Shown here piece after piece: positions 3,297-59,278 of a stretch of 64,000 nt of DNA (positions are counted from its first letter, which is position 1; each line of letters opens with the position of its first letter). The translations under genes were made by a program, and so were the position numbers. Under the pieces are notes generated by a model, which was not told where the DNA came from, made no database searches, and worked only from the letters and a program-made list of their open reading frames with translations. The DNA is from an uncultured bacterium (GTDB lineage: Bacteria; Pseudomonadota; Alphaproteobacteria; Rs-D84), in the NCBI GenBank assembly GCA_950096895.1, contig CATNBF010000001.1, forward strand, positions 20,853 through 84,852, written 5' to 3'.

Positions 3297-4304
3297 CTAT
3301 GACTTGCGTTCATAGCGGCGGGCAATCACCCCGGCAATGGCAAATACCGCGGTTACAATCAAGATAACATTAATAACCTCGCGCAATCGCTGGGTAAAGA
3401 TATAGCGGATAAACCACGCTTCGAGATATTCCCGCTTTGGCCCGGAAAATTCGACGTATTTCGGACGAACAGTCACACCAGAATTTTTATTAATTTGCAC
3501 CTGGACATAACCATATTTTCCCCGATCATAGAATCGCGGCGTTTGACCAGATGACGGAACCGTATAAATGGGAATACCGGCAAATGTACTGGTCGAAAAG
3601 TAATGCACATGCCCAAAAATCATTGCATCGATCTTTTGACCACGAACGATGGCGGCAAAACGTTCTGCATCTGGATCTGACATACGATGGCGTTCTGTAT
3701 CTGATGGATTAATCGGCGGCATATGCCCAAATAATACACAATGACGAAATAATGGACGAATAAATTCCAGCGTCTCGGCCAGCCATTCAAACTGCTCTTC
3801 TTCGATGACATCAGATGAATCCATCGCAATAAACAGCGTATCCCCATATCCGAACCAATAATATGTCGGTCCCACAACCGCACGATAATAACGCTTGTCA
3901 ATATTGCCGCGCTTTTCTACGTCATGATTTCCTGGAATCATATAAAACGGCATGCCGTTCAAGTGCCGGCCCATTTCCCTAAACATCCAATAAAAATTTG
4001 CCGGCCGCCGATCAGAAACCAAGTCCCCCAAATACATAATAAACCCAGGGATATTTTCATCCGATCGGGCATCATCAATAACCCGTTCAATAACATGATT
4101 ATGTGATCCAGTATCTGACATAACAGCGACATTAAATTCCCGCACATCATCTTTCAAAAAATGTGATGCCGGGGGTAACAAGTTTTGCGTTGGCCGCAGA
4201 AAATCCGCCCCCAAATAGGTATGCACCACAAACAGTCCAAACGCCAATGTAATAAAGACAGCCGCAATAATAAAAAATATTCGTGATAATTTTTTTTGTC
4301 GCAT
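3297..4304 (-). CDS. membrane-anchored calcineurin-like metallophosphoesterase
   Basis: Motifs GDLV, GNHD, GHMPP and GHVH. Hydrophobic N- and C-terminal helices. Confidence 0.75.
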   Translation of the reverse strand: MRQKKLSRIFFIIAAVFITLAFGLFVVHTYLGADFLRPTQNLLPPASHFLKDDVREFNVAVMSDTGSHNHVIERVIDDARSDENIPGFIMYLGDLVSDRRPANFYWMFREMGRHLNGMPFYMIPGNHDVEKRGNIDKRYYRAVVGPTYYWFGYGDTLFIAMDSSDVIEEEQFEWLAETLEFIRPLFRHCVLFGHMPPINPSDTERHRMSDPDAERFAAIVRGQKIDAMIFGHVHYFSTSTFAGIPIYTVPSSGQTPRFYDRGKYGYVQVQINKNSGVTVRPKYVEFSGPKREYLEAWFIRYIFTQRLREVINVILIVTAVFAIAGVIARRYERKS

Positions 4305-5296: not shown

Positions 5297-6199
5297 TTGC
5301 AACTGTCTATTAATATTGGTTGGTTTGAATGTCAACACCCCAGCAAAGATTTTGGAATCGATTTTTTTACTTTGCCGGCAATTCTGAAAAAGGCCGGATT
5401 TGCGGCAGCGGAATATTTCCCATCCGTGGGACATTTTTCTATGAATCCAAAAACAATAAACAAAATAATGCGTAATGCCGGTATGCGTTTTTTTAGCGGT
5501 CATTTACCGATGGTGGGCGGACAATTGTCTTTTGATGCGCCGGTATATAAACAACGGTTGGAATATATTAAAGACTGGATTGATTATTTCGCACAACTTG
5601 GGATACAGGTTGCGGTTATACATCCTGATGAAGGGCCTTTTCCATTATCCGAACACCAGGCGCGCATGGAATTGTGCGTGAAATGGGCGCATGCATTGGC
5701 GCACCATGCTGCAAAGTACGGTATGAAAATCGCGGTTGAAACAACATGGATGCGGGGGTCTTTGTTTGCATACCATAAAAATTTACAATATTTTAAAGAC
5801 AGAATCAAAGCAGATAATTTGGGATTTTGCTTTGATGTAGGGCATGCGTATGCGTCTGAGAGCCCGGCAGCCAAAAAAGATGTGGAAAAGCATTTTTGGC
5901 AGACATGGGAAATATTAAAAGATCGTATTTTTACTTTCCATTTGCACAATACATATCCGTGTGTTGATTTTCATAATCCGTTTCATATGGGTGGAATTGA
6001 TTTCAAGCGTTTTTTTAGCGAACTTAAAAAGATGAAATATGAATTCCCATTAACGCTGGAACTGAATCCTGGAAAATGTTTGGGGATTGGTGAACGCAGT
6101 GATATAAAAAGTTGGGGGCCAGCCGAAAATAATTCAAATATTGAAAAATCATTGTGTGCTGCCGCCAAGATGTTCCATAAATATTATGATGTGGCATAG
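5297..6199 (+). CDS. sugar phosphate isomerase/epimerase (xylose isomerase-like TIM barrel)
   Basis: Patterns FCFDVGHAY and FHLHN. 300 aa. The TTG start is uncertain. Confidence 0.6.
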   Translation: MQLSINIGWFECQHPSKDFGIDFFTLPAILKKAGFAAAEYFPSVGHFSMNPKTINKIMRNAGMRFFSGHLPMVGGQLSFDAPVYKQRLEYIKDWIDYFAQLGIQVAVIHPDEGPFPLSEHQARMELCVKWAHALAHHAAKYGMKIAVETTWMRGSLFAYHKNLQYFKDRIKADNLGFCFDVGHAYASESPAAKKDVEKHFWQTWEILKDRIFTFHLHNTYPCVDFHNPFHMGGIDFKRFFSELKKMKYEFPLTLELNPGKCLGIGERSDIKSWGPAENNSNIEKSLCAAAKMFHKYYDVA

Positions 6200-6220
6200 T
6201 TCTTGTTGTGAGAGTTGATA

Positions 6221-6246
6221 AAATCCCGCCCAAATGGGCGGTTTTG
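6221..6246 (+). terminator. intrinsic terminator
   Basis: aaaatcccgccc-aaat-gggcggtttt directly after the stop at 6199. Confidence 0.65.
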
Positions 6247-6577
6247 TCTATCTTGGTCCTGCGCACGGCAGGGTACTTGTACAGCGCGAACATCGCTTTG
6301 CTCGTTCTTGTCAACGGCGTAATCGAACCAATTGTCTCTCATCTCATCGCCCAACACCCAATAATTAAACCCGCCAATGGCGGGTTGAATTCTTGGTTGG
6401 GGCAGCTGGATTCCCTTGGCACTAATGTGCCTGTGGGGAAACCGTGACGACTCGACCGCACTTCGTTTGTCTCGTCTACTTGTTTTCGAACCATGTTGGT
6501 TCTCATCTCATCGCCCAACACCCAATAATTAAACCCGCCATTGGCGGGTTGAATTCTTGGTTGGGGCAGCTGGATTC
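6247..6577 (-). repeat. tRNA-Gln-linked tandem element (two units, 164-bp period)
   Basis: The tRNA 3' end tggttggggcagctggattc at 6558-6577 recurs at 6394-6413. Each copy is followed, in tRNA orientation, by a terminator hairpin and a conserved module. Confidence 0.8.
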
Positions 6578-6631
6578 GAACCAACACTGACGGAGTCAGA
6601 GTCCGGCGTTCTACCATTAAACTATGCCCCA
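6558..6631 (-). tRNA. tRNA-Gln (anticodon CTG)
   Basis: Manual fold of tggggca-ta-gttt-aatggta-gaac-g-ccgga-CTCTGAC-tccgt-cagt-gttgg-ttcgaat-ccagc-tgcccca-a-cca. CCA is encoded. There is one C/U mismatch at the top of the anticodon stem. Confidence 0.85.
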
Positions 6632-6701
6632 AGCGCGCCCATTATATGTCTTAAGTACGACAAATGCAAGTGTAAAATTCTGTTTTTATCAACCGGGGAT
6701 G

Positions 6702-7430
6702 TTATTTATGATGACATGCACAGTCATGGTCACAGGCGCACGCCTGGTTGGATTCGCAATGATGGCCGCCACAGCCGCATTCACATCCGCACCCATATGC
6801 ATCCCGGACATAGGGATTTGTCCGACGCATTTCACCCCATGTCACGGCATATCCATGCCCCGGAACCACAAACGTTTCATCGGCCAAGTTCATTGCACAT
6901 ATCCGGGAAATTGTTGTCGCCAACGCACGATCATCACCCCCGGGTAAATCACAACGCCCCACCCCATTGGCAAACAATGTATCACCAATGATTAAAATAC
7001 CACTGTCTGGGAAATAAAAGGCCACCCCACCGGCCGAATGTCCGGGCGCAGCAATCACATCGGCCCACGCGCCTGGTAAAATTTCAAATGTCCCATATGG
7101 TAAATTCGTGGGCGCAACCGATCCATCAATCACCGGCAATCCGAAATAAGCCAACAGATCCCGCGACCATTCAATTAATGCCGTATCCGCCGTATTCAAG
7201 TACCATGGAACATCGTATCGTGCGGCCAAATGTGGGGCCGCCGAAATATGATCCCCATGTCCATGGGTTGAATACACCGCCCGCAGTGATAATCCGCGTT
7301 CACCCAACAAACGTTGCCAATCGTCTGCGCGTCCCCACGCATCAAAGATCACGGCATCATTACCAACCGTCATCAAAACAGAGTTCGTATTTTCCGGCGG
7401 CATCGCCATAATTTCAAATTTGGCGGGCAT
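6702..7430 (-). CDS. MBL-fold metallo-hydrolase (glyoxalase II-like) with a Cys/His-rich C-terminal tail
   Basis: HGHGDH motif. The C-terminus is GCGCECGCGGHHCESNQACACDHDCACHHK. The start ATG overlaps the ftsH stop (TAATG). Confidence 0.75.
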   Translation of the reverse strand: MPAKFEIMAMPPENTNSVLMTVGNDAVIFDAWGRADDWQRLLGERGLSLRAVYSTHGHGDHISAAPHLAARYDVPWYLNTADTALIEWSRDLLAYFGLPVIDGSVAPTNLPYGTFEILPGAWADVIAAPGHSAGGVAFYFPDSGILIIGDTLFANGVGRCDLPGGDDRALATTISRICAMNLADETFVVPGHGYAVTWGEMRRTNPYVRDAYGCGCECGCGGHHCESNQACACDHDCACHHK

Positions 7431-39421: not shown

Positions 39422-39479
39422 TATTATCATAAATTGCAGATTGATTTCTGAATAAAATCAGTTATAATAGCGTCTGCAT

Positions 39480-39556
39480 GCACCCGTGGCTTAACTGGAT
39501 AGAGCATCGCCCTCCGAAGGCGGGGATTGCGCGTTCGAATCGCGCCGGGTGCACCA
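39480..39556 (+). tRNA. tRNA-Arg (anticodon CCG)
   Basis: Manual fold of gcacccg-tg-gctt-aactggata-gagc-a-tcgcc-CTCCGAA-ggcgg-ggatt-gcgcg-ttcgaat-cgcgc-cgggtgc-a-cca. TATAAT box at 39463. Confidence 0.9.
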
Positions 39557-39955
39557 AAATTCAAACCGACCATCGCGTCGGTTTTAATTTTGCACGGGCA
39601 TCCCGCGATTTGAACGCGCCGCGGTCGACTATGAGTCGGCAAGACAAACGTAGTGCAGTCGCGCCGTCACGAATGCCCCGACGGCACACGTGTGCCCAGG
39701 GAATCGCGCCGGGTGCACCAAAATTCAAACCGACCATCGCGTCGGTTTTAATTTTGCACGGGCATCCCGCGATTTGAACGCGCCGCGTTCGACTATGAGT
39801 CGGCAAGACAAACGTAGTGCAGTCGCGCCGTCACGAATGCCCCGACGGCACACGTGTGCCCAGGGAATCCGCCGGGTGCACCAAAATTCAAACCGACCAT
39901 CGCGTCGGTTTTAATTTTGCACGGGCATTCCGCGATTTGAACGCGCCGCGGTCGA
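39537..39955 (+). repeat. tRNA-Arg-linked tandem element, 2.55 copies of a 164-bp unit
   Basis: Unit starts at 39537, 39701 and 39865. Each begins with the tRNA 3' end gaatcgcgccgggtgcacca (the third copy has a 1-nt deletion), followed by a terminator hairpin and a GC-rich module. Confidence 0.9.
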
Positions 39956-40255
39956 TAATTGGTTTTGCCACCAATAAAACATCGGCGGGCACCGGGGCGG
40001 CCATTACAAATGCTATATCACCCATTATGCCCCCCGCAAAAAAACAGATAGCAATATGATCAAAGGCCCGATATCAACCAAAATAATAAAAAAAAAGCGT
40101 ATAGGGACTAGCAAAAAATTTGGTTGTATCAAATAAATTTTTCTATCATTAATGGAATTTTTACCTAATAAAAACAGTTGAATTATGATAAGAATACAAT
40201 CATAATTAGGCTAAGACATTAGGAATATTACCCTAATTAACGATTGGAGAAAAAT

Positions 40256-40522
40256 ATGACACATACAGCGATATGGGCGGCCATTGATGCCTTGGCCGAC
40301 AAGAACAACATGACGACATCACGTCTGGCACAGATTAGTGGGATGGATGTCACATCGTTTAACCCCAGCAAGCGTTTTACACGCGGGGGCAAGCCGCGCT
40401 GGCCATCGATTGGCAGTCTCCTTAAAATCCTGGCGGCAACGGGAACCACATTGGCAGAATTTGTTGAAATGATCCCAGAAACGACCGACATGGAGCATAC
40501 CACCGCCCCAAAGGCGGAATAA
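40256..40522 (+). CDS. small XRE/Cro-like helix-turn-helix regulator
   Basis: ..MTTSRLAQISGMDVTSFN.. HTH. GGAGA SD 5 nt upstream of the ATG. There is a 7-bp inverted repeat aattagg/cctaatt in its promoter region. Confidence 0.55.
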   Translation: MTHTAIWAAIDALADKNNMTTSRLAQISGMDVTSFNPSKRFTRGGKPRWPSIGSLLKILAATGTTLAEFVEMIPETTDMEHTTAPKAE

Positions 40523-57898: not shown

Positions 57899-58570
57899 CT
57901 ACTTTACCTTGGCCAGGCGGGCATTCTGGACACAGGCATACCATCTATCATCTCTGACTGTATCAATGTGTATGTCCATTAATTTTCCCAATGTGCGCCC
58001 ATGCGCCCAGCATGATACCAAGATGCGTACAGCCCAAAAGAAAGAATTATTGGACATCGTGCCTGTATCTGCCGCGTCACTGGTTCGATCAATTAGTTTC
58101 TTGGTTAATTTCTTGCCTGCTTTCATTTCTATTTGCATTAATTTTGCCCATTGTTCCGCATAACGAATGGTCATCGCACTATACATATCAGAATCATTCT
58201 GTTTTTTATACGCCGCATAGAAATACGGATATGTAACCTTAAATTCTTCATGCGCAATGGTGTCCAAAAAGATTTTAACCCGATGCTGCTCTTTCAAATC
58301 GCGCAATTTGTCACGCATTTGATTTTTTCTTGCGACGTCAGAATTCTGGTACAAATAACATTCATAATCATACTTTCTGTGATAATTATTAAGAATTTCT
58401 GATACACTCATGCCTGGGGTTACATTGATCAAAATATCATTAAATTGAAATTTGACCAGGCGATTTTCTTTGCACGCCTGACCCAGTGCCTGCTTGGCCC
58501 ACGTCTCAATATCCGTTCCAAGAAAATCACAGCTTGACATAAGGCGCGGCTTGTAATTAAATTTTTTCAT
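57899..58570 (-). CDS. hypothetical protein in a visibly AT-rich segment between tRNA-Ala and tRNA-His
   Basis: 223-aa ORF with no motif I recognise. It is followed by its own terminator (aaaaaccggccataatgccggttttt, 57855-57879). Confidence 0.45.
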   Translation of the reverse strand: MKKFNYKPRLMSSCDFLGTDIETWAKQALGQACKENRLVKFQFNDILINVTPGMSVSEILNNYHRKYDYECYLYQNSDVARKNQMRDKLRDLKEQHRVKIFLDTIAHEEFKVTYPYFYAAYKKQNDSDMYSAMTIRYAEQWAKLMQIEMKAGKKLTKKLIDRTSDAADTGTMSNNSFFWAVRILVSCWAHGRTLGKLMDIHIDTVRDDRWYACVQNARLAKVK

Positions 58571-58737
58571 TTCGACATCCTATTTGTTTTCATTAATAGT
58601 TAGCTTAACATCAAATGAAATATATTACAATTTTTATTTTTTATAAATAAAGTATCTAAATAATGTATCATGGCTGAGCATAACATAGAATTTCTGCTTG
58701 CAAATCATAAAATATCCTATATACTAACCTGACGTAT

Positions 58738-58815
58738 GGCGGGCGTAGCTCAGTTGGTTAGAGCACCGGTTTGTGGTACCGGTTGTCGCCGGTTCGAATC
58801 CGGTCGCCCGCCCCA
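58738..58815 (+). tRNA. tRNA-His (anticodon GTG, encoded G-1)
   Basis: g-gcgggcg-ta-gctc-agttggtta-gagc-a-ccggt-TTGTGGT-accgg-ttgtc-gccgg-ttcgaat-ccggt-cgcccgc-c-cca. Confidence 0.9.
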
Positions 58816-59235
58816 TTAAAATTAAAAGCCCGCCTTGTGCGGGGTTTTTATTTTAATTCTGGACGGTGTCGGATGAGAACCGACCGGTTCGACAACGTAG
58901 TTATCGAGAACAAGCCCCTGCGCCGTTCGAGATATACGCAGTGGAAAGGGACCCGCCGCATACGCGGTGGGAATTACAATCCGGTCGCCCGTCCCATAAT
59001 AAAAGACGCCGTATGGCGTGTTTTTTTATGGGATTGCGGCACCGTGAAGAGAACCGGCCGGTTCGACTACGAGTAAGCGAGACAAGCATCGCGCAGTCGA
59101 GTGCTAACGAGTGGTGCGCGCGCAACGCAGCGCGAACAATACGAAGATATCATGCAATGCATGATATCGAAGGTACCCGGTCGCGACAGCTCATAATAAA
59201 AGACGCCGTATGGCGTGTTTTTTTTATGGGATTGC
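58796..59235 (+). repeat. tRNA-His-linked tandem element (two diverged units)
   Basis: The tRNA 3' end aatccggtcgcccgcccca recurs at 58978-58996 with one mismatch and in degenerate form at about 59174-59193. Modules lie at 58861-58977 and 59037-59172. The terminator taataaaagacgccgtatggcgtgttttttt is duplicated. Confidence 0.8.
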
Positions 59236-59249
59236 AGGTATTGACTGCA

Positions 59250-59278
59250 TAAAAAAACACAGGGCAATGCCCTGTGTC
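59250..59278 (-). terminator. fabZ intrinsic terminator
   Basis: Minus strand reads cacagggcattgccctgtgttttttt. Confidence 0.7.

Follow-up and report, generated by a model that had tools for sequence, protein, structure and literature searches.

The tRNA-linked repeats (TLRs) of Escherichia coli have been on record since 1978, and their definition is reportedly also to be credited to Egan and Landy in 1978 and to Rudd in 1999. E. coli K-12 contains 22 TLRs at ten loci; their hallmark is that the final 18 to 19 bp are identical to the 3′ end of whichever tRNA or rRNA precedes them, and no function has been established for them, the early starvation phenotype of rtT having been withdrawn (PMC8144298). 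Three TLRs of the rrn operons (rrA, rrB, and rrF) arise when transcription reads through a terminator; their RNAs undergo processing and are bound by both Hfq and CsrA. RNase E was inferred by the authors to act at both ends, and the 3′ end lies beside the repeat (PMC8144298). In the literature searched, essentially a single experimental paper treats TLRs by name, and no such repeats were described outside enterobacteria. Here, we analyzed a 64,000-nt stretch of DNA from an uncultured alphaproteobacterium (contig CATNBF010000001.1), referred to as the window, in which arrays of short repeat units begin right behind the CCA of the tRNA-Gln, tRNA-Arg, and tRNA-His genes, on the tRNA strand. The reading that suits the repeat best is that of a tRNA 3′ fragment, interrupted exactly at positions 57/58 of the T-loop and held by an inverted copy of the T-arm. 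We regard it as fairly probable that these units are the alphaproteobacterial counterparts of the E. coli TLRs and that, by analogy with the latter, they would be cotranscribed with the tRNA and processed into small RNAs. The Gln, Arg, and His units constitute a new TLR sequence family and an architectural variant in a new bacterial class and are not categorically new.

The array behind tRNA-Gln comprises two units, which are built from the following parts.

6558 to 6631, minus strand: tRNA-Gln(CUG), called by ARAGORN (Rfam tRNA, 66.4 bits); its last 20 nt (6558 to 6577) are the repeated segment "b".
6522 to 6557, minus strand: spacer and terminator-like part, with A-rich agaattcaa, a GC hairpin (6532 to 6550), and an interrupted T-run (tttaattatt).
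6501 to 6526, minus strand: X′, or clamp (26 nt), which repeats the acceptor 3′ strand and T-arm of tRNA-Gln in inverted, degenerate form and ends in GATGAGAACC, found by inverted-repeat search.
6487 to 6504, minus strand: hairpin H0 (GAGAACCA-aca-TGGTTCG), with a 3′ arm that duplicates, in direct orientation, the 5′ strand of the T-stem and TTCG (tRNA positions ~50 to 57).
6414 to 6486, minus strand: module M of type A (73 nt), identified by covariance model (72.9 bits), consensus fold, and 80% identity to the Arg module.
6436 to 6486, minus strand: domain 1 of this module, helices P1 to P3b.
6414 to 6435, minus strand: domain 2 of this module, CCC..GGCAC-atta-GTGCC..GGG.
6394 to 6413, minus strand: exact copy of the tRNA-Gln 3′ end (G57/A58 to CCA), 164 nt past the original.
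6324 to 6393, minus strand: front part of unit 2, with spacer, hairpin (6368 to 6386), X′ copy (6337 to 6362), and weakened H0 (6324 to 6340).
6258 to 6323, minus strand: module M of type C (AAGAAC..GTTCGCGCTGTACAAGT..), a subtype other than that of unit 1, assigned by pairwise alignments.
6254 to 6257, minus strand: ACCA, all that is left of a third tRNA end.
6220 to 6245: bidirectional terminator closing the array, common to it and the convergent TIM-barrel gene (5297 to 6199).

The original prediction had placed the tRNA-Gln 3′ end at 6577 to 6558 and its copy at 6413 to 6394, exactly 164 nt apart, and the exact 20-mer gaatccagctgccccaacca was indeed located at both positions, with no such match expected by chance. 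The recurrence extends well beyond this segment: an 82-nt stretch that includes the tRNA end, the spacer, the hairpin, and the start of the next segment returns at the 164-nt spacing with 96% identity, and unit 2 matches unit 1 at 96% from 6332 upward. The hairpin cccgcc-aat-ggcggg, said to lie between the tRNA end and its copy, was found there and scores as terminator-like; together with its copy at 6368 to 6386, it belongs to five terminator-like sites, compared to 0.8 expected. Followed by an interrupted T-run, the hairpin at 6532 to 6550 is probably a leaky terminator-like element. The ~35 nt before the module turned out to derive from the tRNA itself: its T-arm and acceptor strand come first, inverted and degenerate, and a short piece of the T-stem follows in direct orientation. 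The module is accordingly placed within a tRNA fragment, exactly at position 57/58 of the T-loop.

The second Gln unit had been described as an outer, more decayed copy without a third tRNA end behind it. Only ACCA indeed remains of that end, so that most of the tRNA-end copy has been lost, and the hairpin is weakened; the module itself, however, did not align with the first (z = −0.1), while it matched positions 4186 to 4275 of L005, from another genome, at 72% identity (z = 13.6; L-numbers denote stretches retrieved from other genomes, metagenomes, and viral contigs). Therefore, the second Gln module is a separate subtype (type C) and no decayed copy of the first. Three assemblies of the same species (L048 to L050) all end within the Gln array, and the second Gln unit of L048 has an intact H0 as in unit 1, which suggests that the array varies from strain to strain.

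Arrays were present at three of the four tRNA genes in the window, with 2 units at Gln, 2.6 at Arg, and 2 at His; no array was found behind the window's tRNA-Ala. The Arg and His loci are composed as follows.

39480 to 39556, plus strand: tRNA-Arg(CCG), with 2.6 units behind it (164 bp each, 98% identity; whole locus, 39480 to 39955).
39628 to 39700 and 39792 to 39864, plus strand: Arg modules.
39701 to 39720 and 39865 to 39883, plus strand: Arg 3′-end copies, the first matching 20/20 and the second with a 1-nt deletion.
39934 to 39954, plus strand: H0 of the third Arg unit, which ends directly past it.
58739 to 58815, plus strand: tRNA-His (whole locus, 58739 to 59193), followed by an array (58816 to 59193) of two units with different module subtypes.
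58871 to 58996, plus strand: parts of His unit 1, with H0 (58871 to 58891), type-C-like module (58892 to 58977), and 3′-end copy (58978 to 58996).
59046 to 59193, plus strand: parts of His unit 2, with H0 (59046 to 59065), type-H module with a ~40-nt extension (59066 to 59175), and degenerate 3′-end copy (59176 to 59193).

Gln unit 1 and Arg unit 1 were identical at 116 of 156 positions (74%; z = 20 against shuffles), which bears out the earlier view that the two elements are of the same kind, collinear, and in tRNA orientation. The similarity was strongest in the module (55/69, or 80%; z = 19) and also covered the spacer and terminator (27/32, or 84%; z = 8.9), whereas the tRNA 3′-end copy and the ~35 nt of X′ and H0 before the module did not align because they are tRNA-specific sequence. 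Given the result for the module, the similarity is no artefact of low-complexity terminator sequence, the concern that had been raised about it. The terminator stems differ between Gln and Arg in both arms, as had been noted. The "identical 164-bp period" does exist at both loci, but it is partly a coincidence, since homologous units elsewhere are 156 to 177 nt long. Successive insertion next to the tRNA, which had been proposed from the stacked units, stays plausible; tandem duplication occurs too, as Arg units 1 and 2 are 99% identical. At the His locus, the 3′-end copy matches the tRNA at 18 of 19 positions. The tRNA-His array, the inverted T-arm copy, and the parallel with E. coli TLRs had not been part of the original prediction. 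The Arg array breaks at ..ggtcga|taattgg.., the exact place where a module would begin; AT-rich DNA with an open reading frame (ORF) for a Cro/C1-type helix-turn-helix (HTH) protein (40244 to 40522) lies past it (39955 to 40522), and no further copy of the tRNA-Arg end was found anywhere in the window.

A degenerate pattern of the module core matched three times in the window, compared to zero matches expected. Among species-representative genomes, it identified 17 loci, all in uncultured metagenome-assembled genomes, of which 15 are titled Alphaproteobacteria bacterium and 2 merely "bacterium"; a scan of metagenomes added only 4 true M loci. Nearly all M loci are situated no more than ~160 nt from a tRNA gene and share its orientation, and at least 10 tRNA species adjoin them, namely, Gly-CCC, Gln-CUG, Lys-CUU, Ser-CGA, Ser-UGA, Arg-CCG, Arg-ACG, His, Leu-CAG, and Pro. 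The consensus fold of M has two domains, P1-P2-P3-P3b and P4-P5, with compensatory changes in 8 of the 20 predicted pairs. Domain 1 is common to subtypes A, C, and H, and its covariance model detected 30 copies at 57 to 78 bits, 4 of them in the window. In 23 distinct domain-1 sequences, 83% of the cells were paired, compared to 73% in shuffles, and 27 double changes were counted, compared to 10.6 expected; none of 500 shuffles reached this number, and slid controls collapsed. In L008, another hairpin replaces the inner hairpin, while P1 and its internal loop are retained.

M copies that share a tRNA are 73 to 98% identical between genomes, compared to 61 to 88% for copies at different tRNAs within one genome. 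The genomes concerned have diverged, as illustrated by syntenic proteins of L012 and the window (FtsH, 83% identity; a hydrolase, 68%). Since the copies cluster by tRNA across genomes whose proteins at the syntenic locus have diverged to 68 to 83% identity, these sequence comparisons indicate that M is old at each locus and held by purifying selection. The 3′-end copy follows the tRNA's own substitutions; in L012, for example, both contain ..CAGTT... Additional tRNA-like pieces (..ggttcg..gcacaacca plus terminator) that were not called by ARAGORN were observed in L003 (6770 to 6860) and L005 (3290 to 3365 and 4150 to 4300), some with a short insert past ggttcg and some with a type-C module.

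M occupies three loop positions, namely, T-loop 57/58, anticodon loop 35/36, and D-loop 13/14. In the downstream arrays, it is preceded by the T-stem 5′ strand and TTCG and followed by AATCC.. (ATTCC.. or AGTCC.., depending on the tRNA) through CCA; these flanks show that M splits the tRNA fragment at 57/58 with no nucleotide lost or gained. Mirror-image arrays were found upstream of the gene at tRNA-Ser(UGA), with a period of 157 in L008, L014, and L015: the unit comprises the leader and tRNA positions 1 to 35, the module, and then AAAACCGT, so that the junction falls in the anticodon loop. At tRNA-Leu(CAG) in L020, M lies between positions 13 and 14 of the D-loop in a partial copy upstream of the gene. 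The mirror-image upstream arrays, all with a type-H module, are located as follows.

L008, 1750 to 1920: mirror-image array.
L014, 2250 to 2460: mirror-image array.
L015, 5330 to 5850: mirror-image array.
L020, 3740 to 3900: mirror-image array.

At every junction, the tRNA copy on the short side stops past the stem strand and continues as the inverted arm copy; together they make up a near-perfect palindrome (H0). GGAT-GA-GAACC stands in place of GGAT-TC-GAACC in the inverted T-arm of many units (direct reading); this TC-to-GA change falls opposite G57 and A58, where the module emerges. One M copy does not reside in a fragment: in L001 (5108 to 4860, minus strand), the tRNA-Gly(CCC) gene has been duplicated at full length, and the duplicate has a promoter of its own and a 73-nt M in the T-loop. 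Behind it come a 108-nt insert and another tRNA-end copy, and an intact tRNA-Gly with its own unit is situated ~1 kb downstream. In L021 (7200 to 7550), M was observed in an inverted tRNA-Pro 3′-end fragment (tggtcggggcg|M) adjoining a tRNA-Pro gene on the opposite strand; this is the sole copy whose direction does not agree with that of its tRNA fragment.

The E. coli repeats share this layout. The distal repeats of tyrV/tyrT (178 bp × 3.1, annotated rttR and tpr; Rfam RtT, 134 to 137 bits) have the order tRNA-Tyr, spacer, GGGGAAGGAT-GA-GAAGC..GGTTCGA, GC-rich module, and AATCCTTCCCCCACCACCA; the annotated rtT RNA (rttR) extends from 8 nt past the tRNA to the CCA of the copy, and the Rfam RtT consensus (RF00391) pairs the clamp with the 3′-end copy. 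In the serV-argVYZQ operon, the spacers behind argV, argZ, and argQ hold GGGAGGAT-module-AATCCTCCCGGATGCACCA, while nothing of the kind stands behind argY; the TLR thus amounts to a clean insertion of 139 nt, with the 19 nt from A58 to A76 repeated at its flanks (L051, E. coli K-12 2817300 to 2818900). Like these TLRs, the alphaproteobacterial units directly follow a tRNA gene and share its orientation, with 1 to 5 units per locus at several loci; they end in a copy of the tRNA 3′ end (19 to 20 nt) that starts at T-loop A58. A GC-rich folded segment comes before this copy, and an inverted copy of the T-arm, able to pair with it, lies farther upstream. The clamp motif GGATGAGAAC..GGTTCGA is common to the window units and E. 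coli tyrT (z = 4 to 5), and the tyrT unit also contains the hairpin GGATGAGAA..GGTTCGA, with the TC-to-GA change in it. In contrast to the E. coli TLRs, the units occur in uncultured Alphaproteobacteria, contain modules without detectable sequence relation to those of E. coli, and have a hairpin terminator behind each 3′-end copy; mirror-image upstream variants with the module in the anticodon or D-loop exist, and one M copy resides inside a full-length tRNA gene.

RrA, RrB, and RrF, at the end of E. coli rrn operons, resemble the window units in being located between two terminators. Their 3′ end lies beside a copy of the 3′ end of the upstream stable RNA, which the authors propose to be a processing signal (PMC8144298). 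They differ in following 5S rRNA and in binding Hfq and CsrA via GGA motifs, nothing comparable to which is evident here. Small RNAs of the 3′ETS-leuZ type, from tRNA 3′ external transcribed spacers, are likewise cut from a tRNA trailer by tRNA processing, but they lack a tRNA 3′-end copy, repeats, and a folded module common to different tRNAs.

Modeled on the E. coli systems, transcription from the tRNA promoter would read through the weak hairpin terminators; within the array, no promoter-like sites were found, and the terminator-like hairpins have interrupted T-runs. A tRNA 3′ end with an A/U-rich trailer stands behind every module, where the tRNA 3′-end machinery could cut. By the same analogy, an RNase E-type cut past CCA and subsequent trimming would yield the tRNA and one RNA of ~150 to 160 nt per unit, because the tRNA 3′ end and trailer are duplicated behind each module, and each released RNA would carry the tRNA's own last ~20 nt as its 3′ end. 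In the predicted folds, H0 and domains 1 and 2 are arranged round a junction closed by pairing of the clamp with the copy; such an RNA would thus fold into H0, domain 1, domain 2, and the clamp-to-copy helix, with the acceptor strand and CCA tail exposed. Our best guess is that the unit RNA acts as a mimic of the tRNA 3′ end or as a protein-binding small RNA whose level tracks tRNA transcription. As to origin, a unit could have arisen by insertion at T-loop 57/58 with duplication of positions 58 to 76, and arrays could have grown by further insertions beside the tRNA and by unequal recombination; arrays do vary, both by duplication (the Arg units) and between assemblies of the same species. 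Alternatively, a composite unit delimited by the target site and by one end of the module could have been pasted in, or a direct-inverted-direct duplication, as in a tandem-inversion-duplication model, could have been invaded by the module later.

Several observations weigh against the TLR reading. Within 6150 to 6700, 39450 to 40060, and 58700 to 59260, the Rfam RtT model (gathering threshold, 45 bits) gave no match at an E value of ≤10, and searches with all of Rfam, at gathering thresholds on the whole window and at an E value of ≤10 on the three arrays, returned tRNA matches only. Outside the T-arm-derived clamp, the similarity of the module to the E. coli tyrT module was marginal (z = 2.1, equaled by 13 of 300 shuffles), and common descent with the E. 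coli TLRs is thus not established. Read-through and processing of the units are taken wholly from the analogy with E. coli. By its energy, the clamp-to-copy duplex was not clearly more favorable than shuffles (z from +0.9 to −2.5) and not significant overall, and the complementarity of clamp and copy could simply reflect an inverted DNA copy. Covarying helices would also be maintained under a mechanism acting on single-stranded DNA, and the Ser(UGA) and Leu(CAG) upstream arrays hold the 5′ part of the tRNA, to which the rationale of a 3′-processing signal does not extend. Counts of G·U versus A·C for the transcribed strand gave no information.

An unlikely alternative is that M is selfish DNA, a small, nonautonomous mobile element moved in trans by an HUH-type transposase or another nuclease. 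It would insert without target duplication at G|A in the hairpin loops of tRNA genes and survive only within redundant, partial, or duplicated tRNA copies, any RNA being a by-product. The precision of the junctions in three loops, with no tRNA nucleotide lost (GGTTCG|M|AATCC, GGTCTTG|M|AAAACCGT, and TGGCGG|M|AATTGG), is what such an element would leave, and so is its orientation, which is that of the tRNA in every copy except the one in L021. Also in keeping with mobility are the occurrence of several subtypes within one array, the two back-to-back modules in L006, the full-length tRNA-Gly gene of L001 with M in its T-loop, the difference between arrays of same-species assemblies, and the clean presence or absence of the repeat in paralogous E. 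coli arg spacers. The copies nevertheless cluster by tRNA type across genomes and not by genome, which disfavors recent bursts of M, and M is conserved next to spacers that have diverged. None of the window arrays was found to have a transposase, integrase, or reverse transcriptase beside it, and the inverted T-arm copy with its recurrent TC-to-GA change is left unexplained. The 5′ flanks (TTCG, CTTG, GCGG, GGCG, and AGGG) differ, which speaks against a fixed target word; in a comparison with IS200/IS605-type elements, all five words precede A, and no transposase was found within the 64-kb window. A target of the IS91 type (GTTC/CTTG) was dropped, as it does not suit the junctions in the D-loop (GCGG) and in L021 (GGCG). 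Target-site duplication by a staggered cut at 57/58 and past 76 accounts for the downstream units and for the arg spacers of E. coli but not for the upstream arrays, which duplicate ~75 nt of leader and 5′ half. A broader process that places structured sequences in the D-, anticodon, and T-loops of tRNAs (genes or transcripts) and duplicates the adjoining tRNA end is also unlikely in our view. The E. coli TLRs, the units described here, the mirror-image arrays, and the nuclease cassettes mentioned below would then all be its products, and full-length M-bearing copies such as the tRNA-Gly of L001 might be spliced; if true, it would amount to a bacterial insertion or intron system specific to tRNA loops.

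We consider it improbable that the units are scars or miniatures of integrase-driven islands that use the tRNA 3′ end as att site, with M as a leftover arm region. P4-type integrases are reported to leave, typically, direct repeats of 17 to 24 bp over the tRNA 3′ end and tyrosine integrases to prefer T-loop and anticodon-loop positions (Williams, 2002, Nucleic Acids Res), which would suit this idea, and the same slots do host other cassettes (a GIY-YIG ORF in L009, L010, and L019; the 108-nt insert in L001). Like island and prophage repeats, the units duplicate the tRNA from T-loop to CCA and stack outward; those repeats, however, flank kilobases including an integrase, whereas here there are gene-free units of just 156 to 177 bp with a conserved structured core and no integrase nearby. 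Pfam searches of the ORFs flanking the arrays yielded L9, PBP1, a FabA-like domain (FabZ-type), LpxD, a TIM barrel, GNAT, HTH, and a Tad4-like protein and no integrase. One module at at least 10 tRNAs, its compensatory pair changes and conservation across species, its junctions within the loop without a common overlap segment on the 5′ side, and the duplication of the tRNA 5′ part with its leader in the upstream arrays do not agree with island scars either. It is likewise improbable that M is an intron-like RNA that enters or leaves exposed tRNA loops at the RNA level, with the clamp as a splint for excision and ligation. All three junction loops are single stranded in the folded tRNA, the L001 tRNA-Gly copy with M in its T-loop retains its own promoter, and the clamp can pair with both flanks of M. 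The termini, however, vary by subtype (AAAAC.., CATAC.., ..GAGGG, and ..GCGAAC), no known Rfam ribozyme family was matched, most copies lie in tRNA fragments incapable of giving a tRNA, and the duplicated pieces include leader and trailer DNA. A hammerhead ribozyme (GAUGAG-helix-CGAAAAC) was rejected as a candidate, since the core is incomplete and no Rfam match was obtained. Of the hammerhead core (C3-U4-G5-A6-N7-G8-A9 / G12-A13-A14, with an NUH cleavage site around three helices), only GAUGA-helix-GA(A) is present, without conserved C3/U4 and often without A14; types H and C, like E. coli, have C at the A14 position. Archaeal and red-algal tRNA introns and split or permuted tRNA genes also have extra sequence at the D-, anticodon, and T-loops, but they depend on the bulge-helix-bulge endonuclease, while here gene fragments mostly lie beside an intact gene. 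To our knowledge, this endonuclease is absent from Bacteria. Finally, that the units encode a small basic peptide comparable to the annotated Tpr ORF of the E. coli tyrT repeat has a negligible probability: an ATG lies within GGATGAGAAC as in E. coli tpr, and open frames cross the units (e.g., the ORF at 6339 to 6632), yet no ribosome-binding site was found, the changes are compensatory in helices and not codon-wise, and the module lengths of 69, 73, 74, 75, and 81 nt do not differ by multiples of three, an indel pattern that ruled out Tpr-like coding.

The TLR layout is thus present in distant Alphaproteobacteria and at many tRNAs, with a core that is under purifying selection and contains covarying helices, and mirror-image 5′ versions exist alongside the 3′ versions. 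Comparative evidence on structure, selection, loop-precise junctions, and mirror-image variants was not found in the literature searched. What was a curiosity of E. coli becomes a comparative problem with concrete RNAs, junctions, and motifs, such as the TC-to-GA change of the clamp opposite G57/A58. A scan of viral contigs for the clamp motif gave mostly chance matches in coding DNA; the motif was located directly behind a tRNA 3′ end in four unrelated viral or prophage contigs (L024, L027, L035, and L037), and in L024 and L027, it is followed by a module and then by a complete or partial tRNA-end copy.

Other cassettes were observed at tRNA ends. ORFs for GIY-YIG nucleases of ~80 amino acids begin directly past the CCA of tRNA-Thr or transfer-messenger RNA (tmRNA), or past a module plus tRNA-Gly end, with a leader of ~80 to 150 nt that contains common conserved motifs. 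They were found at the following positions.

L009, 2820 to 3166: GIY-YIG cassette.
L010, 3480 to 3719: GIY-YIG cassette.
L044, 1084 to 1443: GIY-YIG cassette.
L046, 1123 to 1470: GIY-YIG cassette.
L047, 1048 to 1677: GIY-YIG cassette.

In L009 and L047, a further copy of the tRNA or tmRNA 3′ end, starting from the T-loop, stands behind the ORF. This looks like a second kind of cassette in the same slot in several phyla; no GIY-YIG nuclease was present in the window, and no relatives were found in the viral contigs. In the window, a 223-amino-acid ORF (57899 to 58570, minus strand) with a Pfam match to Tad4 (Thoeris inhibitor; 1.6e−12) lies between tRNA-Ala and tRNA-His. This region looks like an insertion of ~1.1 kb, since the two tRNA genes are just 16 nt apart in the relatives L002 and L017. 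Upstream of tRNA-Gln (6702 to 7430, minus strand), a protein with a metallo-beta-lactamase fold is encoded, which has a Cys/His-rich tail (GCGCECGCGGHHCESNQACACDHDCACHHK) at its end.

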